A stretch of 10,600 nucleotides of DNA from Promethearchaeati archaeon (GTDB lineage Archaea > Asgardarchaeota > Heimdallarchaeia > JABLTI01), in NCBI GenBank assembly GCA_013166835.1, contig JABLTI010000093.1, positions 1-10,600 of the forward strand, written 5' to 3'. Numbering within the stretch: position 1 is the stretch's first letter; each line of letters begins with the position of its first letter. Both the position numbers and the translations under genes were made by a program. Of the stretch, positions 1-10,600 are shown one piece after another. The notes beneath the pieces were generated by a model. The model did not search any database. It saw nothing but the letters and a program-made list of their open reading frames with translations, and had not been told where the DNA came from.

Positions 1-1041
1 ACCTGCTAGAGATACTTGTTCTCTATCGAACAATCCACATAAAGGACCAAAGGATGCAACTGTTTCAAATTCAGGTCCATCAGTTACTATCTCTTTAGAA
101 TCATGAACGATTACTGTGTGTTTAGCACATTTTATAGTGCAACCTGCACAACCAGAAGTGAAAACAGGTAAATGCTCCTTAATCGTTTTTTCTGTTAGGA
201 TTTCTGCTGGAAATTCTGATTCTGTAAAATAATAAGCAGGAACATCTCCAGCGAACATACCCATATCCATGTAAAGATTTGTTCCGTAAAGATATTGCAT
301 GATTGGGAGTAATTGCGATAGTTGTTCCTTTTCTCCATCAATCTTCTTTCGTAATTCTAACATAGCTTTCTTATCTTGCCCAGTAATCTTCGAATGTTTT
401 TGTATTGCAATAGCTTTGAGTTTCTTTGAACCCATGATTGCTCCTAAACCACATCTACCTTGTGCTCTACCCTCATCATTCATTATACAAGCATAACGAA
501 CTAGGTTTTCCGCTGCTGGTCCAATACAAGCAATTCGTAACCCATTGATTTTAATCTGTTCCTTAAGGATTTCTTGTGTTTCATAGGTTCCTTTACCCCA
601 GAGTTTGGTTGCATCTTTGAATTTTATTTCACCATTCTCAATGAGAATATAACATGGTTTTTTTGATTTCCCAGTTATTACTAGAGCATCATATCCTGAT
701 CTTCGGAGATTTATACAGAAGAAACCACCACTTGTTCCTTCTCCCCATTGATTTGTTAATGGCGAGATTCCTGATACTGAATATCTTCCTGATGCTGGAC
801 GAGGAGTGCCGGTCACTGGACCTGTTGCATAGACAATTGGATTTACTGAATCGTATGGATCTTTCTTCAATTTCTTGTAATCATCTTCGGAGAGTAAATC
901 ATAAATGAGCTTTGCACTTAATCCTGTCCCTCCAATATAATCTTCTGCGATTTCCGGATCGAGTGGTTTTACTACAACTTCTTTCTTAGTTAAATCGATA
1001 TAAGCTATTTTTCCATTGTAACCTGTCATTGTTTCAGTCAT
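1..1041 (-). CDS. aor: Aldehyde:ferredoxin oxidoreductase (tungsten-pterin AOR family), N-terminal part; runs off the left edge
   Basis: Manual translation from ATG at 1041: MTETMTGYNGKIAYIDLTKK...YIGGTGLSAK...TGPVTGT...SPLTNQWGEGTSGG...LRRSGYDALVITGKS...LWGKGTYET...IGPAAENLVRYACIMND...GRCGLGAIMGSKKLKAI...CAGCTIKC...GPEFET. These are typical AOR motifs including the CxxCxxxC Fe-S ligands. SD GGAGTGG at about 1049-1055. Absent from the ORF track because no stop falls in the window. Confidence 0.95.
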   Translation of the reverse strand, partial: MTETMTGYNGKIAYIDLTKKEVVVKPLDPEIAEDYIGGTGLSAKLIYDLLSEDDYKKLKKDPYDSVNPIVYATGPVTGTPRPASGRYSVSGISPLTNQWGEGTSGGFFCINLRRSGYDALVITGKSKKPCYILIENGEIKFKDATKLWGKGTYETQEILKEQIKINGLRIACIGPAAENLVRYACIMNDEGRAQGRCGLGAIMGSKKLKAIAIQKHSKITGQDKKAMLELRKKIDGEKEQLSQLLPIMQYLYGTNLYMDMGMFAGDVPAYYFTESEFPAEILTEKTIKEHLPVFTSGCAGCTIKCAKHTVIVHDSKEIVTDGPEFETVASFGPLCGLFDREQVSLAG

Positions 1042-1054
1042 TTTTTTTCCACTC

Positions 1055-2356
1055 CTAGTATACTAGTTTCTCCCCATCCCAAGCAGCTTCGAACATTCGT
1101 CTGTAGTTTTTTTCTCCTACTGGTCTGTAGGATGTTAATGTGCAAACATCTTCTTTTGAATATCTTGCAAGAACAGCCAGTTTACTCTGATAATCTGTTT
1201 TGGTAATTTTTGGTTCAGTAATTTCTTTCACGGAAGCTACTCCACCCATTGAACGTTGGAAGGCTTGTATTGCTTTGACTAGTGCTTCCAGTAAATCTTG
1301 TCTTGTTGAATATTTCTCTTTTTCAACTCCAAATAATGGACACAATTTGATCCATTTCTCTGTTACCTTGGCTTGCCAGGCAACGGATTGAGCTGAGAAC
1401 ATACCAACTGAGAGTCCATGATGGACATGCATAACTGCTCCGAAGGAATGACCAAGTGCATGTTCTATTCCAGGCATTGCATTATTGAATCCCATACCAG
1501 CCAATGTTGCAGCCCATTGCATGTGTTCCAAAGCTTCTTCATCTTTTGTTCCATATTTTACTAAGCGTGGCAGATACCGAAGTACTTCTTCAATTGCTAC
1601 CATATTTATCGCATCTGACAAAGGTGAACCCCAATTAGAGGTTATAGCTCCTAAACTGTGAGCTAGAGCATCTAATCCTGTTGCCATAATGAGGAAAGGT
1701 GGCAGTGTTTTCACAAATTTAGTGTCTAGAATAACATAATCTGGTAAGGTTTCATCCACAGATAAACTGATTTTTTTCGGAGGATCTCTTTTAGTATCAG
1801 TTATTATCGATGCTGTGGTTACTTCGCTTCCTGTTCCAATTGTTGTTGGAATTGCTACTAATGCTTTGACTTTTCTTCTTAATCCAACTGCATTATCTAG
1901 AATATCAATTTGCATGAGATTTATTCCGGGTTGCTCATAGACAATCCAGAGAGCTTTCGCTGCATCCAATACCGACCCACCTCCAACAGCAAGGAAGAGC
2001 GTTGGTTTAAAGTCATTACAAATTTTTACTCCTTCTTCAAGAATATCCATTGGAACTTCTGGTTCAACACCACTCCAAACTTTGATTTCGAATCCATTAT
2101 CTTCAAAATCAGGAGCTATATCTTCGTAAAATCTTTTTGTGAAAGAATCAGCTATGATAAGTAGGCGTTTTTCTCCTTCATCCAATCTTTTACCTAACTC
2201 AATAGCAACGGTATTTACACCAGTTTTTCCACCAAAAATACGATTCCCACTAAATGTATTCATGATCCCTTGCATTGCACGAGCTCCCATTAAACCTACA
2301 ACATCGTTGAGAGCTGGGCTTTCGTACCAAGGTATTTCAAAATCTTCATCAGACAA
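1055..2356 (-). CDS. Iron-containing (group III) alcohol dehydrogenase
   Basis: Motifs GGGSVLDAAK, PTTIGTGSEVT, GLDALAH, EHALGH and HHG (metal ligands). The ORF track starts at GTG 2365, but that GTG is part of a GGAGTG SD, so TTG at 2356 is the more likely start. Confidence 0.93.
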   Translation of the reverse strand: MSDEDFEIPWYESPALNDVVGLMGARAMQGIMNTFSGNRIFGGKTGVNTVAIELGKRLDEGEKRLLIIADSFTKRFYEDIAPDFEDNGFEIKVWSGVEPEVPMDILEEGVKICNDFKPTLFLAVGGGSVLDAAKALWIVYEQPGINLMQIDILDNAVGLRRKVKALVAIPTTIGTGSEVTTASIITDTKRDPPKKISLSVDETLPDYVILDTKFVKTLPPFLIMATGLDALAHSLGAITSNWGSPLSDAINMVAIEEVLRYLPRLVKYGTKDEEALEHMQWAATLAGMGFNNAMPGIEHALGHSFGAVMHVHHGLSVGMFSAQSVAWQAKVTEKWIKLCPLFGVEKEKYSTRQDLLEALVKAIQAFQRSMGGVASVKEITEPKITKTDYQSKLAVLARYSKEDVCTLTSYRPVGEKNYRRMFEAAWDGEKLVY

Positions 2357-2453
2357 TAAGAACACTCCAAGTTTAGTTAAACTGCAAATACTAGCAAATC
2401 ATGCTTTATTAATTTTCATCTTTTTTATGGTAGCATAATTTATATCAAAAATG

Positions 2454-2492
2454 AATAAAACTAGGAATAAATTAATAATTTCTAGTTTTATT
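2454..2492. promoter_or_regulatory. Inverted repeat in the divergent ADH / histidine kinase promoter region; candidate operator
   Basis: AATAAAACTAG (2454-2464) and CTAGTTTTATT (2482-2492) form perfect 11-bp arms around a 17-nt spacer that is partly symmetric. Confidence 0.5.
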
Positions 2493-2573
2493 TCTTAAAC
2501 AACAGCACTTAATTAATTGACAAAATTCAGTATTTAGTATATTGTCCAATATTAAATCCTTGAAGATGTTATT

Positions 2574-3719
2574 ATGCCCAAAGCTAAAACACATTTTGCC
2601 TCTCCTGATCGGCTAGAAAAAGGAGAATTAAAGGAGCAATACAAAAAAGTTCTTTCTTTAGAACATACAAAAGAAATTCTTAATTCATTCCCAAATCTAG
2701 TTGTTGTTTTAAATAAGCAAAGACAAGTTATTTTTGGAAATGAAACCTTTGTAAAAATGTTAGGACTTAGTGAATTTGAGGATGCTCTTGGTCAAAGACC
2801 TGGAGAATTATTGAAATGTGTTAATTCAGCTATCCTTGAAGGTGGTTGTGGTACATCAAGAAATTGCCGTTACTGTGGAGTTGTTCTAACTATATTGAAA
2901 AGCCTAGAATCTGGTGAAGAAGAAGAGAGTGAAGCAAGACTAACTACCAGGCAACAAGACAAAATAGTTCCACTAGATTTGCAAGTCATAGCAAAACCTC
3001 TGTTCATGGATGGAGATCAATTCATTGTAGCAATCATGACGGATATTAGCATTCTAAAAAGAAAGGAGTATCTCGAGCGAACTTTTATGCATGATATGAT
3101 TAATACTACTTGGTCGTTATCAGGTAGAATTGAATTCTTCCCGAGAGATGGTTTAAATGAAATCCAGGATGAGTATTTTAATCGGATTAAAATAGAAATT
3201 GGCAAACTTCTTGATGATATTCAAGCACAAAGAGATCTATTAAAATTAGACAAAAAGGAACTTGTCACTGAATTCAGAGAAATTGATTCCCTTGAATTAA
3301 TACAAATGATTATTCATACCATGTCAACTGATAAAACTGCTAAAAACAAAAAAATAATTATAGCTAAAAATTGTTGTTCAGCTAAATTAAAAACCGATGT
3401 ACGATTATTACGTCGATCACTGATAAATCTTCTAAAAAATGCCTTAGAAGCAAGTACTGTTGATGAGGAAGTAATTATTGGTTGTGAAAAATCTAGTAAC
3501 GGAATTACTTTCTTTATAAAAAATAAAGCTGTATTATCTGAAGAAGTTAAAAGTCAAATATTTCAACGTTTCTTCTCAACAAAAGGACAAGGTAGAGGTT
3601 TGGGAACATACAGTGTGAGGATACTTGTGGAAGAGCATTTGAATGGTCAAGTTAATTTTGAATCATCAGAGAAAACTGGTACAATATTTAGAATCATTTT
3701 ACCACTAAAAATTAATTAG
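2574..3719 (+). CDS. Cytoplasmic PAS-domain sensor histidine kinase (HisKA-like + HATPase_c)
   Basis: PAS start (ILNSFPNLVVVLNKQRQVIFGN), H-box FMHDMIN, N-box LINLLKNALEA, F/G boxes IFQRFFSTKGQGRGLGTY and GTIFRIILP. No hydrophobic TM segment. Confidence 0.92.
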   Translation: MPKAKTHFASPDRLEKGELKEQYKKVLSLEHTKEILNSFPNLVVVLNKQRQVIFGNETFVKMLGLSEFEDALGQRPGELLKCVNSAILEGGCGTSRNCRYCGVVLTILKSLESGEEEESEARLTTRQQDKIVPLDLQVIAKPLFMDGDQFIVAIMTDISILKRKEYLERTFMHDMINTTWSLSGRIEFFPRDGLNEIQDEYFNRIKIEIGKLLDDIQAQRDLLKLDKKELVTEFREIDSLELIQMIIHTMSTDKTAKNKKIIIAKNCCSAKLKTDVRLLRRSLINLLKNALEASTVDEEVIIGCEKSSNGITFFIKNKAVLSEEVKSQIFQRFFSTKGQGRGLGTYSVRILVEEHLNGQVNFESSEKTGTIFRIILPLKIN

Positions 3720-3742
3720 AGTAATTTAATTAGTGAATTGAT

Positions 3743-4465
3743 ATGAAAATTAAAGATTTCTTCCTAGGAAATTTCAGTCATGAGTTTTGGAAAAATCGCG
3801 TATCACCATTAATAATTATAGAATTTCTTGGTACTCTTATGATAGCTTGGGCTCTCCGACCAGTGTGGCTTGGTGAGGAATGGATCTATTTCCCTTTTAA
3901 ATTTCATATAAGTGGATTAGGCAATGGACGTATGGAAGGAAATATTGGTGCATGGATTTTTGTTCTTGGATTCTGTCTCCTACCACTTCTTGGTACTGTT
4001 TGGAGTAATTTTATTTACAAGCAATTTGCGAAAATTTCCAAGGTGTTTGCTGTGATACTTTGGATACATCTGGAATTCAGTATGATTTGCGTTGCTTTTG
4101 TAGGTATTTTTGATGGCATTTGGCCCACTCAAAAAATTTCCGGATTTATGCACTCCTTTGGAGCTACTTTTTCTTTCTTGGGTTTTACAATTGCTGCTGT
4201 TTTAGTCTTCATTGTGATGTTGATTATTTTTTGGAAGATTCCATCAGAATCTAGACAAGTACTACACCAGGTAATGTTCTTCTTAGTCATTGTGGAATTG
4301 GTAGGAGTTTACATCATATTTCGAATAATTGGAACCGCATTTTGGCAGTGGACGTTGATGCTTTCTTTAATGTTGTTCATATTTATTATAAGCAGATTCT
4401 TTCCTGAAAATTTGATTTCACACGAAAACAAAAAGGATGAAACTTTAGAAATCCTTCCAGAATGA
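3743..4465 (+). CDS. Integral membrane protein with about 6 TM helices, DUF998/Frag1-like
   Basis: Multiple hydrophobic segments; HISGLG, VGIF and HSFGA(T)FSF resemble the DUF998 pattern; GTGA SD at about 3733; 23 nt after the kinase stop. Confidence 0.7.
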   Translation: MKIKDFFLGNFSHEFWKNRVSPLIIIEFLGTLMIAWALRPVWLGEEWIYFPFKFHISGLGNGRMEGNIGAWIFVLGFCLLPLLGTVWSNFIYKQFAKISKVFAVILWIHLEFSMICVAFVGIFDGIWPTQKISGFMHSFGATFSFLGFTIAAVLVFIVMLIIFWKIPSESRQVLHQVMFFLVIVELVGVYIIFRIIGTAFWQWTLMLSLMLFIFIISRFFPENLISHENKKDETLEILPE

Positions 4466-4519
4466 GAGAATACCAATATTAAACATAATATATATTAAAA
4501 CCAAAAGCAATTCTTTAAT

Positions 4520-5872
4520 ATGTTTTCAAAGGGCGATAAATATAAAAGAAAATTTCTGGTTTTTCTGTTTTTCTTTATTCTTCTTGCACCTTTACCTAGT
4601 TTTAGTAATTCTGCTTTCTCTTCTAAACAAGAAAAATACTATGATTCTGAATTACTATATGCCTTTGAAACTCAAAATCTTAATCTAGTAAAATCTTTAG
4701 CTACTACTAATAATTATAGTTTAATTAGTCAATGGAATGGTAGTTTAGGTAGTACATTTGATGTTTTCGTTGTTGACGAATTTGCTTATCTTGCCGATAA
4801 AGACGGAGGGTTAGTTATACTCGATATAACCAATCTAACCCAACCTCGAGAAATAGGTCGTAAAGCCATTGCTGGTGATATCGTTGGTGCAGTTAATCTC
4901 TTTATAGAAAATGATTATGCGTACATCGCAAATGATGTTGATGGAGCTAGAATTATTGATATTAGTAATAAATCAGAACCTAAATTAATTAGTGAATATC
5001 ATGATGAGTTATATTATTGGGATGTTTACGTAAGTGGGAATTATGCTTTTTATACTACAATTGGAGATGGTTTAGAGATAATTAATGTGAGTAATAAAGC
5101 GATTCCAAATGAAATTGCTCAATACAATATGGGAGGATTTATCTGGAGTGTTTGGGGTTCTGAAAATTATATATATATTACAGATCTTAATACAGGCCTG
5201 GAAATAATTAATGTAACAGAAATTACAACTCCTACAAAAGTTGGTTTTCATGATGTTTATACAGGGCAACCCTTTTCTGTTTTTGTAGAGGAAGATGTTG
5301 CTTTTATTGCTGTTGGAAATGAAGGTCTTGAATTGGTCAATATTAGTGAAAAAAGCAGCCTTGTAAAATTAAGCCAATTTAAAGAAAGTGGTTCAATAGT
5401 CGATGTACACTCTAACAATGATACTGTTTTTCTTGCAGATAAATTCAATGGTTTGAAAATATTAGATATCTCCAATAAATCAAATCCAGTTAAAGTTGGT
5501 TCTTATTCTCTTAGTGGTGATTCTTGGAATGTTTTCTATCAAGAAGAAGTAGTTTACTTAGCGAATGGACAAAATGGTTTAGCAATAATAGGAATTGATA
5601 GAGACAATGATGATCTCGCTGATTATTTAGAATTAGAAATTTACGATACAGATCCTTTGAATCCGGATTCCGATGGAGACGGATTTCATGATGGTTATGA
5701 AATAGAAATGGGAACGAATCCCAATGATCCTAATGATTATCCTATTATTCCTAGTCCAAGTCCAACAGAAACCAGTGGATTCAAATATGGCTTGATTTTT
5801 GTAATTTCATTTATTTTCATAAAAATATTTTTTGTTATAAAAATTAATAAACGAAAGAATAAACTAAAATGA
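4520..5872 (+). CDS. Membrane-anchored surface protein: signal peptide, about 7 LVIVD repeats (beta-propeller), acidic Ca-binding repeats, C-terminal TM and basic tail
   Basis: N-terminal KYKRK plus hydrophobic stretch; repeated 'V.v.gnyAYva....GL.IidisnkxxP' units; DRDNDDLAD...DSDGDGFHDGYE; Pro/Ser/Thr linker; TM followed by KINKRKNKLK. Confidence 0.88.
   Translation: MFSKGDKYKRKFLVFLFFFILLAPLPSFSNSAFSSKQEKYYDSELLYAFETQNLNLVKSLATTNNYSLISQWNGSLGSTFDVFVVDEFAYLADKDGGLVILDITNLTQPREIGRKAIAGDIVGAVNLFIENDYAYIANDVDGARIIDISNKSEPKLISEYHDELYYWDVYVSGNYAFYTTIGDGLEIINVSNKAIPNEIAQYNMGGFIWSVWGSENYIYITDLNTGLEIINVTEITTPTKVGFHDVYTGQPFSVFVEEDVAFIAVGNEGLELVNISEKSSLVKLSQFKESGSIVDVHSNNDTVFLADKFNGLKILDISNKSNPVKVGSYSLSGDSWNVFYQEEVVYLANGQNGLAIIGIDRDNDDLADYLELEIYDTDPLNPDSDGDGFHDGYEIEMGTNPNDPNDYPIIPSPSPTETSGFKYGLIFVISFIFIKIFFVIKINKRKNKLK
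4727..5596 (+). repeat. Protein-level LVIVD repeat region (about 43 aa period)
   Basis: GLVILDIT, GARIIDIS, GLEIINVS, GLEIINVT, GLELVNIS, GLKILDIS, GLAIIGID. Boundaries approximate. Confidence 0.85.
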
Positions 5873-5880
5873 GAAATAAA

Positions 5881-5940
5881 AGAAAGGAAGTTAAACCTAT
5901 TGAAGGTTAACACCTCTTTCTATTCTATTTTTTATCTTTT
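5881..5940. terminator. Imperfect hairpin with A/T tracts between convergent genes; possible bidirectional terminator
   Basis: AGAAAGG-AA-GTTAAACCT-attga-AGGTTAAC-A-CCTCTTTCT followed by T-runs, with A-rich sequence on the other side. Confidence 0.45.
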
Positions 5941-5957
5941 CAAGAGACATTAATTAA

Positions 5958-6593
5958 TTAGCAGCAACAATCTTCAATTTCTTTAGCGATATCAAATTCT
6001 AAACTTAGAGCTAACCAACCAATGTAATCAATTAAATAGTCAATTAAACCCCAATCTAAATTTGATATTTTCTCCATTGTTTCTTCATTTGCGTTTCCAA
6101 AAATTTCATTTATAAGTTGAAATTTTCTAGATTCAAGAGTGCTAATTAACTTATCAACACCCTTATCTGTTTTTAGTTTGTCTTTGAATTTGCCTGCGAG
6201 TAAAGAATAGATTGTATCGTAAAACAATCCTACATCTTTTTCTTCCATGGAATCTATTTTTTTCTCAAGATTTGCTGTTAAGAAAATCTTTGCAGTTCGA
6301 ATGTATATTGTTTCACTCTGAAGATCACCTGCACCCTTAGATGTAATTCGCTTACCTGCTTTTGCGACTAAACCTATTTCTATTAAGTTCTTTAGGTATC
6401 GATAAATTGACTTATCAGATTTCTTCATACCTTTATGAGCAAAATCACTCTCTAATTCCTTTACAGTTCTAGGACCTACTCTTAAGAATTTTAAAATGTA
6501 GTATAAGTTTTCATCTCCATGTAAGATCTCTGCTTGCTTTTCAGATAGATCAATTACTGTTTTTTGGTTGAATGTTATTACATCTTGGCTCAT
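5958..6593 (-). CDS. Winged helix-turn-helix (ArsR-like) transcriptional regulator with a C-terminal helical domain and terminal CCC
   Basis: ILKFLRVGPRTVKEL...SDKSIYRYLKNLIEIGLVAKAG...ETIYIRTAKIF is a wHTH pattern. SD AAGGTGG precedes ATG 6593; the ORF-track GTG at 6602 lies within this SD. Confidence 0.85.
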   Translation of the reverse strand: MSQDVITFNQKTVIDLSEKQAEILHGDENLYYILKFLRVGPRTVKELESDFAHKGMKKSDKSIYRYLKNLIEIGLVAKAGKRITSKGAGDLQSETIYIRTAKIFLTANLEKKIDSMEEKDVGLFYDTIYSLLAGKFKDKLKTDKGVDKLISTLESRKFQLINEIFGNANEETMEKISNLDWGLIDYLIDYIGWLALSLEFDIAKEIEDCCC

Positions 6594-6608
6594 ATTTACC
6601 ACCTTTTT

Positions 6609-6725
6609 TTCTTATTCTCTTATATTATGTTCTCATGATAATATATTGTATTCTCATGTATTTAAATATTATTCTTAAGTCGTAATATTAGATTCTAATG
6701 AAATAATATCATTTTCTCATCTTAT
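6609..6725. repeat. Degenerate 21-bp tandem direct repeat array with a TTCT(C/T/A)A core; candidate cooperative operator
   Basis: Cores start at 6609, 6630, 6651, 6672, 6693 and 6714. Units: tatattatgTTCTCAtgataa / tatattgtaTTCTCAtgtatt / taaatattaTTCTTAagtcgt / aatattagaTTCTAAtgaaat / aatatcattTTCTCAtcttat. Confidence 0.8.
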
Positions 6726-6764
6726 GAGAAACCTTTATATATAAGTGTGAGAATAATATTCTCA
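6713..6764 (+). promoter_or_regulatory. Archaeal-type promoter (BRE/TATA) flanked by two palindromes of the TGAGAA/TTCTCA box
   Basis: TTTCTCAT-ctt-ATGAGAAA (6713-6731); TTTATATATA at 6734-6743 preceded by purine-rich GAGAAA; perfect TGAGAATA-a-TATTCTCA at 6748-6764, near the expected transcription start. Confidence 0.7.
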
Positions 6765-6789
6765 AACAATAAGAATGGTGTTAACAAAA

Positions 6790-6891
6790 ATGAATAAAAA
6801 AGCTGAAAGCAAATACAGAAAAAAAATGATGAATGAAGATGTTGAGAAACAAAAACGAAAATTAGCTTTACTAGTTGGACACTATAGATAA
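6790..6891 (+). CDS. Small basic peptide 1 (33 aa; 38 aa if started at ATG 6775): MNKKAESKYRKKMMNEDVEKQKRKLALLVGHYR
   Basis: Manual translation; GGTG SD at 6777-6780, 9 nt before the ATG; directly downstream of the TATA box. No recognised homology. Confidence 0.6.
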   Translation: MNKKAESKYRKKMMNEDVEKQKRKLALLVGHYR

Positions 6892-6923
6892 AAAAAATGA
6901 GAAAATTACTGGAGAAAAATAAA

Positions 6924-7013
6924 ATGATGAATAAGAAAAATAAGATTAAAAATCAAATCAAAAAGTACCAGAATAAAGCAAGAATGGATTATCAGATGTT
7001 AATTGGGCGATAA
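6924..7013 (+). CDS. Small basic peptide 2 (29 aa; 38 aa if started at ATG 6897): MMNKKNKIKNQIKKYQNKARMDYQMLIGR
   Basis: Manual translation; GGAG SD at 6911-6914, 9 nt before the ATG; tandem TAATAA stops; followed by T-tracts. Confidence 0.55.
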   Translation: MMNKKNKIKNQIKKYQNKARMDYQMLIGR

Positions 7014-7040
7014 TAAAATTATCCTTGACAACTAATTAAC

Positions 7041-7086
7041 CTTCTTTTAAAATTCGTTCTTGCTTTTTTTTATGTACTTTGTTTTA
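7041..7086 (+). terminator. Oligo-T tracts; candidate archaeal terminator for the peptide transcript
   Basis: CTTCTTTT...GCTTTTTTTTATGTACTTTGTTTT. Strand composition switches from A-rich in the peptide ORFs to T-rich just after them. Confidence 0.45.
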
Positions 7087-7100
7087 CTCATTCTAATTGA

Positions 7101-7988
7101 TTACAATTGTTTTACTTCTTCAATGAAGGTTAATGTTTCCTTACTGAAATCTTCAGGTTTTAGTATTGCGGTATATGCGTGTACAGAACCTTCAATTGTA
7201 ACAATTTTATGATATTTCAGTTTCTCTGAATATTTCTTGAGGTTTCTTTGTACAATTTCATTCGGTGCTTCTGCTTCGTCTGGCAACCAAAGAATCGGAC
7301 AAGTTATTTTGTCAAAATATTCTTGAAATCTAATATCATAAAGTGGCCAAATAAAATTCCAACTGATTTTTCCTTCTTGTGGAGTCCGGAATTTTCCTTC
7401 TTTAGTTTCGAAGATTTGATCTTCCGCTTGAATTCGAAGTACTTCTGACCACGAAACGCCTTCATTTTTCCAAGCTTCTTTGAAGTATTCTAAACAATCC
7501 TCTTTGGAATCGTACAATTTTACTGGTTTCTCTAGAATTATTTCTTTCAATTCTTTTCTTGCTTTATCTATGGCTTCTTCTGTTAAGATCTGATCTTTGC
7601 TGTCAGGTCCTACAAGGTCATATAAACCACCATCAAGAACCATAGCAATTGCTTTTTCTGGATAATTTGCTGCAAAACTTATTGCTGCATCTGCTCCTAA
7701 TGAGCTCCCAACAATGTATGCTTTCTCTATTCCTAGTTGTTTCATTAAGGCAGCTATATCACTTGCCATATCATCAATGTGACATTCATTTGGTTTATCA
7801 GAGAAACCATGACATCTCATGTCTAATGTTAATATTCGATAATCTTTTTTCAAATAGGGAATAACTCCATTCCACATACCAATAAGGGCACCACCGTAAG
7901 GTAAGAGAATAATTGTTTCTTTTCCTTCGTTTGGTATGTCAAGATATCGAATGTTTAAACCATTGACCTTTGTCATCTTTGTGTTCAT
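7101..7988 (-). CDS. Alpha/beta fold hydrolase
   Basis: LDMRCHGFSDKP, nucleophile elbow VGSSLGA, C-terminal His in GSVHAY. GTGA SD precedes ATG 7988; the ORF track extends to 8009. Confidence 0.9.
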   Translation of the reverse strand: MNTKMTKVNGLNIRYLDIPNEGKETIILLPYGGALIGMWNGVIPYLKKDYRILTLDMRCHGFSDKPNECHIDDMASDIAALMKQLGIEKAYIVGSSLGADAAISFAANYPEKAIAMVLDGGLYDLVGPDSKDQILTEEAIDKARKELKEIILEKPVKLYDSKEDCLEYFKEAWKNEGVSWSEVLRIQAEDQIFETKEGKFRTPQEGKISWNFIWPLYDIRFQEYFDKITCPILWLPDEAEAPNEIVQRNLKKYSEKLKYHKIVTIEGSVHAYTAILKPEDFSKETLTFIEEVKQL

Positions 7989-8072
7989 TTTTATCACAAA
8001 AATTCTCATAAATTATAATTATAAATAATATAGATAGGTCTTGGAAAATCACTGCTAGATAAAATTCGAAAA

Positions 8073-8756
8073 TTAGCTTTCTAGATTCTCTATTGGAAAT
8101 GGTGCTCCATGACCAGGATAAATGGTTTTAACACCATTATTAATTATTTTTCTCCAGCTTTGCATCAGCATTTCCTCTTCAATTATAAACGCTGGTCTTT
8201 TTCCTTTTCCGAAATAAAAGGTGCTTCTATTTGAGCAAGTATCTCCTACAAATCCTTGTCCATCTTTTAGAACTAATGTAATGCTATCAATAGTATGACC
8301 AAAAGTTGTTATGATTTTTCCATTTATTCCAATTTTTTTGAGTAGTTTATTATTGTCTTTCTTAATTGGAATAATTCTTTCATCAGCAATTGTTACACGT
8401 GGAACTCCATGTTTCATTGCTAAAACTGCAAGTTTCTTCATAAATTTGTAGTAGAAATTCACAGGTTTTGATTCTGGTTCAATTGTCCCATTAAATAAAT
8501 GTGTTATTGCATTCTCATGGACTATTAGCTTCGCTTCACTTGCTTGCAGAAATTGTTCTGCAAAACCAGAGTGATCCGCATGTGAATGTGTTAAGAGGAG
8601 ATATTTTATTTCAGTGATTTCAATTTTTAATTTCTTTAATTTTCTTAGAAATCTCCTGAAATCATGTGGTATTGACACATCAACTATGAGGAAGCCATCA
8701 TTTGTCTTTAACAAATAGCTATTAGTTGATCCCCTAATTATGATTACTTCAGTCAT
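8073..8756 (-). CDS. MBL-fold metallo-hydrolase (glyoxalase II-like)
   Basis: NSYLL, THSHADH, GHTIDS, VGD and YPGHG motifs. Confidence 0.92.
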   Translation of the reverse strand: MTEVIIIRGSTNSYLLKTNDGFLIVDVSIPHDFRRFLRKLKKLKIEITEIKYLLLTHSHADHSGFAEQFLQASEAKLIVHENAITHLFNGTIEPESKPVNFYYKFMKKLAVLAMKHGVPRVTIADERIIPIKKDNNKLLKKIGINGKIITTFGHTIDSITLVLKDGQGFVGDTCSNRSTFYFGKGKRPAFIIEEEMLMQSWRKIINNGVKTIYPGHGAPFPIENLES

Positions 8757-8824
8757 TCAGACAACCCACACTAGAGACAATTAGTAAGAATAATTATTTG
8801 AATGATTTGCAATAATTTCCCTTC

Positions 8825-9601
8825 TCAATCATTTTTTGGTTTGAAGGTCATGGTCCATTTCTCGTCCCCTTCCCAGCTATCAAAAACATGACCTAATCCT
8901 TCTTTTCTAGCGAGTTTTTCCATTTCTCTTAAGAGAATTTGTTGTATTTGATAATCACCTGTCTCGTATATTTTAAACAACATTTCAATAAGTTCCTTAG
9001 AGGACCAAGGAAATTTCTTTAGGGGGAATTTTTCTAATTCATATTCAAGATATTTGTAATAGGGACTTAATCTCGAGTCATGAAATGCAAATGCACAAAT
9101 TAGAAATAGCCTTACAGAGTCTGCTGCCTCTAATCGATAACCAACATGATTATTATCTCGCAAGCTTTTCAGTGAACGATAAACAGAATTAATATAACCA
9201 TCTAGATAACCAGCAACGTAACCCTTCCAATATTTTTCTGGTATCTTCCCTTTTTCATCAATAATTTCTTGTAATTCACCATTTGTTTTGTCTTTTATTG
9301 TTTGAACATGAGCGTAGTTGTATCTATCCCATTCATATTCTGTTCCAATTTCTGCGTGTTCTTCAAATTCTTTTATAGTTTTTACTCCACAATCTATTCC
9401 TTTGATTTCATCATATTTCTCAAATTTTTCTCTGTACTCTTTTATCACGTCTTCTTTCACAATCACTAAGAAATCGTAATCAGAATATTCTTTATAAAAT
9501 CCCTTCCCTCGAGAGCCACCGAGAACTAATCCCAATATATTTGGATCTTTCTCAGATTCCTTTTTTATTTGCTCAAAAATCTCATGTATTGATTTGGTCA
9601 T
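8825..9601 (-). CDS. Pol-beta superfamily nucleotidyltransferase with a C-terminal helical domain (KNTase-like architecture)
   Basis: LGGSRGKG...SDYDFLVIV...GID supplies the GS, DxD and third Asp signature; the C-terminal half is helical. Confidence 0.85.
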   Translation of the reverse strand: MTKSIHEIFEQIKKESEKDPNILGLVLGGSRGKGFYKEYSDYDFLVIVKEDVIKEYREKFEKYDEIKGIDCGVKTIKEFEEHAEIGTEYEWDRYNYAHVQTIKDKTNGELQEIIDEKGKIPEKYWKGYVAGYLDGYINSVYRSLKSLRDNNHVGYRLEAADSVRLFLICAFAFHDSRLSPYYKYLEYELEKFPLKKFPWSSKELIEMLFKIYETGDYQIQQILLREMEKLARKEGLGHVFDSWEGDEKWTMTFKPKND

Positions 9602-9658
9602 ACAATCAGGGAAAATTTTAACTTTAAAAGATTTGTTAAAAGAAAAAGAAACTGGAAG

Positions 9659-10045
9659 CTAACCTCCAGCTGCACCATAAGTGAATCCTGGAGCACACCA
9701 GCTTGTTTTGTCATGTTTCAACCAAGCATCAAGTGAATCTTGTTCATAAACAACATTATCATTAATGATAAGTTTAATTTTCTCTATGCACCAATCATCA
9801 TCTTTACTATGAGATTTCTTTCTTAAGCATAAATACCTAAAATCAGAGGAATTTACACCCATTGAAACATCTAATTCAAAAGCATCAGTTTTTCCCTTTT
9901 CAAATTCATCATGCTTAGTAATATCGAGTTGCCATGTATGTCCACCCACATAAAGTTCAACAGCATTGTCTGTATCACTTCTTCGTTCTTTACAAGTTGT
10001 AATTTCAATTACAATTTTTTCTATTTTCTCGTATTCAGATTTCAA
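9659..10045 (-). CDS. Stand-alone PLAT/LH2 domain protein
   Basis: IEITT...SDTDNAVELYVGG...FEKGKTDAFEL...LCLRK...DDWCIEKIKLII matches the PLAT pattern (T..aGTD..V.l.l.G / Fe.G..D.F / dW.l..v.v). GAAGGA SD precedes a TTG start. Confidence 0.75.
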   Translation of the reverse strand: MKSEYEKIEKIVIEITTCKERRSDTDNAVELYVGGHTWQLDITKHDEFEKGKTDAFELDVSMGVNSSDFRYLCLRKKSHSKDDDWCIEKIKLIINDNVVYEQDSLDAWLKHDKTSWCAPGFTYGAAGG

Positions 10046-10132
10046 CGATTTATCCTTCTAGTATATTTTTTATGTTGTTTAACTTGAATCAGCTATAAAT
10101 TACTATGGAAATAGGAACTAAACTTGAAAACA

Positions 10133-10600
10133 TCACTCCTTCGATTTCTTCTTATTTACTTTTTCAATAAATTTTTCAATTTTTTTCCTTGGAATTTTTT
10201 TAGCGGTCATATGTGAAGGAATAGCGAAATCCCATTCGTAATCTAAGATTGTTTTCAATGTATCTTGATACTGCTTGAAATCATCATGATATTTTTCGAA
10301 AACCTCTCGCAATCCAAAAGGCATAAACATTATGGTATCACCTAGAAAAAGCAACTTTTCTTTCTCGAGTAACAAACAAATATGTCCCCAGGAATGACCT
10401 GGAACATGAATAGCTTTAAGCTTTAATTCTTCATCAATAATTTCATTATGTTTTATGGTACGATTAGGATTAATAATTTGACCTCGGAGAGCATTAGCAA
10501 AATGAGGGGCTTCATCTTCATGACAAACAATTTCAACTCGTTCTTGTGGAGATTCAGGAGCACTTATTGTAGTCATTTCTTTCATTAATGGAGCCAATCC
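10133..10600 (-). CDS. MBL-fold metallo-hydrolase, C-terminal part; start lies outside the window
   Basis: IVCHEDEA, HVPGHSWGHICLL, LFLGD and IPSH. The frame is open to the window edge and the HxHxDH motif is expected upstream. Confidence 0.85.
   Translation of the reverse strand, partial: GLAPLMKEMTTISAPESPQERVEIVCHEDEAPHFANALRGQIINPNRTIKHNEIIDEELKLKAIHVPGHSWGHICLLLEKEKLLFLGDTIMFMPFGLREVFEKYHDDFKQYQDTLKTILDYEWDFAIPSHMTAKKIPRKKIEKFIEKVNKKKSKE

Follow-up and report, generated by a model that had tools for sequence, protein, structure and literature searches.

Repressors of the ArsR/SmtB type typically regulate their own synthesis through palindromes located near the promoter, and archaeal repressors usually act by blocking the access of the TATA-binding protein (TBP), transcription factor B (TFB) and RNA polymerase to the DNA. 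In the Rgg/SHP and other RRNPP systems of Firmicutes, the regulator gene is often divergent from a gene for a short peptide, and in the CI/Cro switch of lambdoid phages the repressor faces a small gene over a compact region in which several graded operators overlap both promoters. A layout that recalls these systems is found in a stretch of 10,600 nucleotides from a Heimdallarchaeia archaeon (assembly GCA_013166835.1, contig JABLTI010000093.1, positions 1 to 10,600), the whole of which was analysed and is referred to here as the window. Region 5958-7086 of the window consists of a minus-strand gene for a winged helix-turn-helix (wHTH) regulator, followed by an AT-rich spacer of about 500 bp (GC content 0.246) that contains two short plus-strand open reading frames (ORFs; Table 1). 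On balance, we lean towards reading this locus as one copy of a lineage-specific repressor-microprotein module in which the microproteins are the regulated output. A first-pass annotation of this DNA had listed a TATA-like box, two ORFs led by Shine-Dalgarno (SD) sequences, a T-tract and a divergent wHTH gene, and all these elements are present. It had also recognized no described system of this kind, and the titles and abstract openings of the papers retrieved on the archaeal protein PH1932, on Heimdallarchaeia and on Asgard small proteins contain no description of such a layout.

The divergent promoter carries a dense array of one hexamer, TTCTCA/TGAGAA. Six exact boxes lie within 135 bp (at 6630, 6651, 6714, 6725, 6748 and 6759), a number per span reached in none of 2000 dinucleotide shuffles (shuffle maximum 4), and the spacer at 6594-7100 holds eight exact boxes, against a maximum of five in 2000 shuffles. 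The total over the window is not significant (19 vs 13.0 ± 3.6 in shuffles), and the hexamer density genome-wide is 1.13 per kb on both strands. The earlier description of about ten phased copies is correct: with one-mismatch variants counted, the forward boxes TTCTTA 6609, TTCTCA 6630, TTCTCA 6651, TTCTTA 6672, TTCTAA 6693 and TTCTCA 6714 are exactly 21 bp apart, and they are accompanied by inverted TGAGAA at 6725 and 6748, TTCTCA at 6759 and a further one-mismatch box, TAAGAA, at 6770. This layout was compared in nine distinct alignable orthologous regions (46-78% protein identity, plus the window), most of the comparative material coming from a search of 10 same-genus and 50 other genomes. 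It is kept in all nine, so that the proposed conserved operator array in a divergent promoter stands. The offsets -105/-84/-63/-42/-21/0 recur in loci L012, L013, L014, L016 and L020, each without at most one box, and the spacing is looser in L015, L017 and L027. Both half-sites of the palindrome TTCTCA-N5-TGAGAA (operator O1), which abuts the TFB recognition element (BRE) and TATA box of the peptide promoter, are invariant in 9/9 regions. The palindrome that had first been put forward, TGAGAA-N5-TTCTCA (operator O2), is indeed present, but family-wide conservation applies only to O1: the TGAGAA half of O2 stands at +34 from O1 in eight of the nine orthologues, its TTCTCA half in four. Also kept in the orthologous regions are TGAGAATA and, without exception in the nine, both TTATATAT of the peptide TATA box and ATATTTAAA between boxes 6651 and 6672; paralogous modules carry a similar TATA box, CTTATATA. 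The TTTAAATA/ATATTTAAA box would be the promoter of the wHTH gene, with a start near box 6630. Elsewhere in the window, the promoters at 8010-8072 and 8757-8824 have single boxes only and no palindrome. Two more exact TGAGAA boxes, inside ORF1 (6843-6848) and just before ORF2 (6898-6903), are kept in the closest relatives only.

This arrangement resembles that of CI/Cro also in that sites of high and low affinity suggest an ordered occupancy. It differs from it in its 21-bp phased direct half-sites combined with palindromes, where CI/Cro has three spaced palindromes, in products of 29-33 amino acids without a helix-turn-helix, and in the lack of a phage context; a phage switch was rejected because a Pfam scan of the window found no phage genes.

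The ORF list gives 38 amino acids for each small ORF; since the conserved SD sequences place the starts at ATG 6790 and ATG 6924, the products have 33 and 29 amino acids. Of the 44 listed starts of the family to which these ORFs belong, nearly all are preceded by GGAG or GGTG at a distance of ~8-10 nt. ORF1 and ORF2 are paralogues that can be aligned with each other and with further copies. ORF2 is present in all nine distinct orthologous loci and ORF1 in six of them (L012, L013, L015, L017, L027 and L029); the other three (L014, L016 and L020) have a single hybrid ORF instead, with an ORF1-like N-terminus (..YHKK..) and an ORF2-like C-terminus, which looks as if a deletion had joined both paralogous ORFs. 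The ratio of non-synonymous to synonymous differences (pN/pS) is 0.28 in frame and 0.68 and 0.97 in the other frames (14 pairs), and differences by codon position number 36/29/67. As the first-pass annotation had supposed, the two small ORFs are genes; they are conserved, led by SD sequences and under purifying selection. It is extremely improbable that they arose by chance in an AT-rich spacer next to a normal ArsR-type repressor that regulates itself: although lysine- and asparagine-rich ORFs arise easily at 25% GC and the window-wide hexamer count is not significant, the ORFs, their SD sequences and their frame are kept under purifying selection, and 46 representative clusters of related sequences exist in public data. 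Neither ORF has a Pfam match, and a search of the ESM Atlas with ORF1 gave no usable match; a YlbE match of the L014 peptide was dismissed (E 0.038, 14.7 bits vs 27).

Judged by their sequences, both ORFs belong to a genus-specific, multi-copy, unnamed family of lysine-rich microproteins of about 29 amino acids. The family profile (..K..IK.QI.K....ARMKFAL.TG., in a stand-alone ORF of ~28-35 amino acids with an SD) is matched in the genome search by ORF2 at E 2.6e-12 and by ORF1 at E 4.9e-10, and the pattern shared by the members is K..IK.QI.K....(A/T)R(M/I)K(F/Y)AL..G, followed by R, A or xYR; conservation is concentrated in the last 10-12 residues of the peptide. There are 13 copies in the genome of the window. 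The family is found in 10/10 other genomes of the genus and in 0/1 genome of the sister genus; a single partial match, of marginal significance (E 1.2e-3), turns up among 49 genomes of other families. A search of 1.84 billion representative sequences yields, at E <= 1e-3, 46 clusters (at 50% identity), whose members stand alone and have 27-86 amino acids, mostly 28-33; none of the ten clusters looked up has a functional name (nine are unnamed and one is a 'hypothetical protein'). As read from their sequences, the peptides are highly basic, lack a signal peptide and contain no hydrophobic stretch of more than ~6 residues. All 13 family genes are plus-strand genes on their contigs (C247, C59, C253, C143, C21, C138, C95, C123 and C37), and strands are mixed in the related genomes; contig orientation should be arbitrary.

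The linkage of peptides, operator and regulator was examined in the loci compared, which belong to related genomes and thus do not count as independent; they contain 56 distinct family peptide genes. Twenty-seven of these genes are divergent from a wHTH gene at a distance of 96-898 nt, and the remaining 29 are orphans without a neighbouring regulator or operator. The palindrome, with an N5 or N6 spacer, lies within 400 nt upstream of 26 of the 27 wHTH-linked genes and of none of the 29 orphans. A C-terminal Arg or Arg-Tyr (GR, GxYR or GRY) is found in 23/27 linked peptides vs 3/29 orphans, which mostly end in GA, GC or GQ. Seen from the regulator, all 17 matches of the wHTH subfamily in the genome search have divergent small ORFs. 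Within the genome of the window, divergent peptide genes also accompany the closer wHTH paralogues, two of which are on contig C143 and two, in tandem, on C21; the promoter in front of these peptide genes is composed of TTCTCA-N6-TGAGAA, a TATA box and TGAGAATA. A third class of paralogues (L018, L019 and L023) combines the same operators with three different small ORFs, of 34-36 amino acids; no peptide genes accompany the distant wHTH paralogues on C208, C215 and C210. The proposal that the peptides are the private partners of the regulator is not borne out, given the 13 copies in the genome and the 29 of 56 family genes that lack regulator and operator.

Some C143/C21 modules carry two further small ORFs (L034:1262-1464, G000 C21; L035:1255-1451, G000 C143), and extra conserved small ORFs outside the peptide family are present in L034, L035, L018, L019 and L023: ..KVKI.L.MFYSDGLI (33 amino acids), MKEIKK.. 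(23-24 amino acids), ..VFILMFEDYCYDYI (36 amino acids) and ..LQKSRLTQTM.QSIT.KYK (34 amino acids). Among the orphans, the peptide pairs L033:1130-1330 (G000 C59) and L036:1200-1376 (G000 C253) have a common promoter region, AACAACTTGTGACCTCT ... AGTGAATCCGCTTTATATAT, without TTCTCA boxes; the ORF just upstream of the pair on C253 resembles Gar1 by eye.

The wHTH gene starts at ATG 6593, a start backed by the family alignment; its SD is kept as ccacc/tcacc in the orthologue alignment, and the GTG 6602 of the ORF list falls inside this SD. The protein combines an N-terminal ArsR-like winged helix with a C-terminal helical domain that ends in Cys-Cys-Cys (5958-5969). In its AlphaFold2 (AF2) model, with a predicted local distance difference test (pLDDT) value of 81.6, the winged helix is followed by five helices, which form a helical domain of ~100 residues. 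The Pfam family HTH_5 (PF01022) scores 20.1 bits (E 6e-4) against a cut-off of 22 bits, and it matches 34 of 43 wHTH family members at E <= 0.01 (best 3.3e-6). Residues ~15-105 of the model align with chains of CzrA, SmtB, CadC, RosR and ArsR (Z 9-10, root-mean-square deviation (rmsd) 2-4 Å). The ArsR-type assignment made at first sight is supported by these family and fold matches, the window copy itself staying below the HTH_5 cut-off. Within the wider ArsR/SmtB group (CzrA, SmtB, CadC, SqrR, BigR, HlyU) and in the archaeal RosR and Phr, it is the wHTH core that matches, over ~75-90 residues at Z 9-10; the window protein differs from them in its extra domain of ~100 residues, its sub-threshold HTH_5 score and a Cys-Cys tail at the extreme C-terminus, which is missing in some paralogues. 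The orthologue group retains this tail, as do several paralogues (CCC, CCS, CCP, CCQ), and others end in IFVK or LYK. PadR (PF03551) does not match the window protein and matches 4/43 family members at E <= 0.01 (best 0.0032); two-domain PadR and VanR chains reach only a Foldseek E of ~3e-3 with template modelling (TM) scores of 0.27-0.29. Among solved chains, PH1932 of Pyrococcus horikoshii (PDB 1ULY and 2CWE, titled 'ArsR homologue DNA-binding protein') alone aligns with the model from end to end, with Foldseek E 3.5e-6 and 4.8e-5, TM 0.41-0.45 and VIA Z 10.0-10.3 over 176-179 residues; it also heads a profile search against the PDB (E 0.012). The identity is 14-18% and the rmsd 7.2-8.9 Å, so the domain packing differs; the PDB titles name no ligand or operator for PH1932 and, as far as they go, point to no associated microprotein genes.

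There are 68 homologues of the wHTH protein, and the named ones all carry Heimdallarchaeota or Asgard labels except three with other labels. At E <= 1e-40 the regulator occurs in 8/10 other genomes of the genus and in 0/50 genomes of other genera in the class; scans of contigs with the protein gave three loci in metagenomes and one in genome contigs. The recognition helix (KSDKSIYRYL) and the wing (AKAGKRITS) are mostly invariant or at least 90% conserved across 43 orthologues and paralogues, which fits the operator and half-site that the paralogous modules share.

In the mechanism that we propose, a wHTH dimer would bind TTCTCA-N5-TGAGAA at the BRE/TATA of the peptide promoter and the TGAGAA just downstream of the TATA box, and thereby block the access of TBP, TFB and RNA polymerase. 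Weaker half-sites in exact 21-bp phase, i.e., two helical turns, extend from the palindrome over the TATA box and presumed start of the regulator gene, and cooperative binding on one DNA face would also silence the wHTH gene (autoregulation), after the peptide operon. We infer a repressor because O1 abuts the BRE/TATA, TGAGAA lies between the TATA box and the presumed start, and the phased half-sites cover the TATA-like box of the regulator (6659-6667). The protein would come off the DNA in response to a signal perceived by its C-terminal helical domain; in view of the Cys-Cys(-Cys) tail, a redox, metal or electrophile signal is a candidate. Release would lead to a short bicistronic mRNA that encodes two lysine-rich, probably single-helix microproteins and would end at the U8 tract after a helix that has its 5' arm in the last ORF. 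Because the same family exists in many copies without a regulator, the microproteins are most likely the regulated output, acting as small basic intracellular effectors. A toxin-antitoxin pair was rejected, since the genes are divergent and not co-transcribed and orphan copies exist.

Several observations weigh against this reading. The sole argument for an effector role is the existence of the orphan copies, and the linked copies form a distinct subtype that would also fit a regulator-specific partner. The hybrid ORF of L020 is out of frame, with an A-run 1 nt shorter, and in the L014/L016 pair non-synonymous differences exceed synonymous ones (9.0/80.3 vs 1.0/15.7). The covariation of the RNA helix described below comprises few independent events among related sequences, and 12 intergenic palindromes have no wHTH-family neighbour. 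Finally, we infer DNA binding, repression, the signal and the role of the peptides from the sequence, from which transcription of the peptide operon and both start sites are likewise deduced; the 15 sequencing runs listed for positions 5000-8100 of the window are all DNA or of unknown type.

Two other readings keep some weight because of the distinct C-termini of the linked copies and the solute-binding protein (SBP) and ATP-binding cassette (ABC) genes among the presumed targets. One is an intracellular feedback switch, an idea of the first-pass annotation, in which GR-type peptides would bind the C-terminal helical domain of the neighbouring wHTH protein as anti- or co-repressors, and the peptide level would act on both divergent promoters to give a bistable or pulse-like switch. 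We regard this as unlikely. It agrees with the fact that wHTH subgroups keep their own peptide subtype (...MDYxxLxGR and ...KLALLxGxYR here, ...KTRMKFALFTGR and ...RARIKFALYTGR at C143/C21, ...VSTNWR at L018/L019/L023), with the Arg or Arg-Tyr ends that mark the linked peptides, and with hydrophobic residues that the sequence places at i, i+4 and i+7, as in an amphipathic helix able to dock. However, the subtype pairing is explained, with no contact needed, if neighbouring genes are inherited together, more than half of the family genes (29/56) have no regulator, and the distant wHTH paralogues have no peptide genes. A predicted complex of two wHTH chains with the 38-amino-acid reading of ORF2, run without controls, had a score of 0.01 and a mark of 0.32 and is evidence neither way.

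The other reading is connected with the operators found elsewhere in the genome. Exact TTCTCA-N5/6-TGAGAA sites number 18 (six with a 5-nt and 12 with a 6-nt spacer), where the hexamer frequency predicts ~1.1 per spacer length and other spacings give 0-6 sites. Sixteen of them are intergenic, and only four adjoin wHTH-family genes. The earlier claim that the peptides are the only local targets of the regulator thus holds at the locus itself but not beyond it, where the palindrome stands at 12 other intergenic sites; a different factor could bind these, or the wHTH family could control far more than the peptides. The neighbouring genes encode Pfam domains that include nitroreductase, PEMT, ATC_hydrolase (two tested paralogues and a third by similarity only), BD-FAE esterase, DUF6144, 4Fe-4S, MBL-fold, nucleotidyltransferase, beta-lactamase family, radical SAM, LVIVD and SBP_bac_5. 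The presence of hydrolases, reductases, transporters and binding proteins among the products of these neighbours suggests a broad regulon of the detoxification or stress type.

One of these sites lies ~120 nt upstream of the SBP_bac_5 gene (C143:494-2233, E 2.8e-44) and another upstream of a gene pair for an FtsX permease and an ABC-ATPase, beside the wHTH pair of C21; in two other genomes (L042 and L066), SBP homologues lie ~1 kb from orthologous modules. These genes would fit signalling of the Rgg/SHP (RRNPP) type, in which the peptides are exported, perhaps trimmed, imported via the family-5 SBP and sensed by the wHTH protein. The likeness comprises a regulator divergent from a gene for a peptide of 20-35 residues, with a basic N-terminus and its conservation in the C-terminal 10-12 residues, several paralogous pairs per genome, and an oligopeptide-type binding protein in the same regulon. 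On the other hand, the peptides are hydrophilic, strongly basic and devoid of an export signal, unlike the precursors of SHP and Phr peptides; the regulator, from an archaeal host, has a wHTH and a small helical domain in place of a helix-turn-helix with tetratricopeptide repeats (TPR), and neither the AF2 model nor the Pfam matches of the 43 family members, which include no TPR families, reveal a TPR-like peptide-binding domain. Moreover, the ORF map of C143, in which the neighbours were not Pfam-scanned, has no candidate permease beside the SBP gene, and the orphan copies are served by strong promoters that lack the operator. Peptide signalling of this kind appears improbable. Equally doubtful is the broader conjecture of an archaeal communication or feedback system based on peptides, in which GR-type microproteins, or their conserved C-terminal parts, are specific ligands of the neighbouring wHTH regulators, whether inside the cell or after export and uptake by the co-regulated binding protein and ABC systems, and in which translation of the last ORF is coupled to 3'-end formation.

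The effector reading that we prefer includes a peculiar 3' end. Within the codons A-R-M-D-Y of gene 2, GCAAGAAUGGAUU (6978-6990) pairs with AAUUCGUUCUUGC (7051-7063), directly before a U8 tract, and TTCTTGC + T7-8 + AT is invariant in 9/9 orthologue regions. Orphan peptide operons end with the same element and show compensating changes (GCA/TTCTTGC, GCC/TTCTGGC, GCT/TTCTAGC, ACC/TTCTGGT). Among 18 sequences, 88.9% of cells are paired, vs 31-51% with the partner slid, and the covariation score is 0.297 vs at most 0.119 for the slid versions, the observed value being reached in 0/500 shuffles; pair 12-118, for example, is AU in nine cases, CG in six, UA in one and UG in one. RNAalifold predicts the long helix from eight orthologues with a covariation term near zero, and covariation appears only after the orphan operons are added. 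A conserved, covarying RNA helix, absent from the first-pass annotation, joins the last ORF to the terminator-like 3' end. This element would act as a terminator or as a stem that protects the 3' end, opened by the translating ribosome. Archaeal termination is thought to need mainly a U-tract. Bacterial leader-peptide attenuators and intrinsic terminators likewise have a stem and U-tract, with one arm inside a short translated ORF, so that the position of the ribosome could decide whether the stem forms; they differ from the present case, in which no downstream structural gene is controlled, as the next gene converges, and the loop is at least 60 nt. Because the next gene converges, the small ORFs were also rejected as upstream ORFs of a downstream gene.

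The invariance of this element, its presence in orphan operons, the covariation of the helix with the ARM codons and the need for a ribosome on the last ORF to melt the helix would also suit a transcript that is mainly a structured or dual-function RNA, in which the 3' helix and U-tract are functional and translation only modulates them. We consider this quite improbable, since the amino-acid sequence is itself under selection (in-frame pN/pS 0.28), upstream ORFs without a role in the 5' arm keep the same peptide motif, SD sequences are conserved and no Rfam family is matched. After the last stop codon, a CCYTGACA motif occurs here (7025-7032) and in orphan operons, whose 3' untranslated regions have a GTTCAAGAG..CTCTTGAAC hairpin next after it.

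Hardly any work has been done on gene regulation in the Asgard archaea, which are the closest known relatives of eukaryotes, and annotation usually misses microproteins. The locus presents a compact, directly testable circuit with a repressor family whose operator is clearly readable and whose exact two-turn half-site array suggests a cooperative coating of one DNA face. If the peptides are effectors, they would constitute a novel class of small basic proteins that has its own stress-type regulon; if they are ligands or signals, peptide-controlled transcription would be extended to archaea, and a peptide-ligand transcription switch would be the first described in Asgard archaea. The covarying helix between coding sequence and terminator offers a clean case for a link between translation and 3'-end formation in archaea.

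Table 1. Features of the regulator-microprotein locus and related elements. Positions are those of the window unless a locus (L) or contig (C) is named.
Feature	Position	Strand	Basis
wHTH regulator gene, 211 aa	5958..6593	minus	ORF, sub-threshold HTH_5 match, AF2 model
SD GGTGG of wHTH gene, 6 nt before ATG 6593	6600..6604	minus	sequence
Six direct half-sites in exact 21-bp steps over the regulator's own promoter	6609..6719	plus	sequence, orthologues
TATA-like box of wHTH gene, TTTAAATA, between boxes 6651 and 6672	6659..6667	minus	conservation
O1, palindrome TTCTCA-N5-TGAGAA abutting BRE/TATA of peptide promoter	6714..6730	none	orthologue conservation
TATA box of peptide operon, TTTATATATA	6734..6743	plus	conservation
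O2, TGAGAATA right after TATA box and TTCTCA 6759, over presumed transcription start	6748..6764	none	orthologues
Microprotein gene 1 (ORF1), 33 aa, end ...KLALLVGHYR; SD GGTG 6777-6780	6790..6891	plus	ORF, SD, orthologues
Microprotein gene 2 (ORF2), 29 aa, ...IKKYQNKARMDYQMLIGR; SD GGAG 6911-6914	6924..7013	plus	ORF, SD, orthologues
5' arm of long-range RNA helix, GCAAGAAUGGAUU, in gene 2 codons A-R-M-D-Y	6978..6990	plus	pairing
3' arm AAUUCGUUCUUGC (7051-7063), U8 (7064-7071), conserved AUGUAC (7072-7077)	7051..7077	plus	terminator-like 3' end
Single hybrid ORF	L014:1211-1306; L016:1203-1298; L020 ~2299-2427		
Other intergenic palindromes	C21:3452, 23761, 35172; C40:4299; C43:47531; C47:5852		
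Other intergenic palindromes	C48:2651; C63:7879; C69:1445; C143:2355; C224:1823; C237:546		

The window is contig C247 of a 260-contig, 3.56-Mb assembly, and the homologues of its genes mostly carry labels of Heimdallarchaeota or the Asgard group. The next gene after the spacer, which encodes an alpha/beta hydrolase (7101-8009), is convergent on it. Flanking genes are common to the window and only its two closest relatives (L012 and L013), so the conserved unit comprises the regulator, the spacer, the peptides and the 3' element. The whole window contains no tRNA gene and no match of an Rfam covariance model at the gathering score. A scan for bacterial sigma-70 promoters and hairpin terminators, not informative for an archaeon, gave six promoter-like sites vs 4.2 expected and no terminators under a definition that excludes the long-loop helix. 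On the minus strand, 9659-10045 encodes a protein of 128 amino acids with a PLAT/LH2 domain (E 1.7e-8), a domain known mostly from eukaryotes. Judging from three related genomes, C247 and C143 may be neighbours in one super-locus: an orthologue of the module and C143-type modules lie 5-12 kb apart on the same contig in G003:C199, G007:C37 and G004:C270, and in G004:C270 an SBP gene sits between them.

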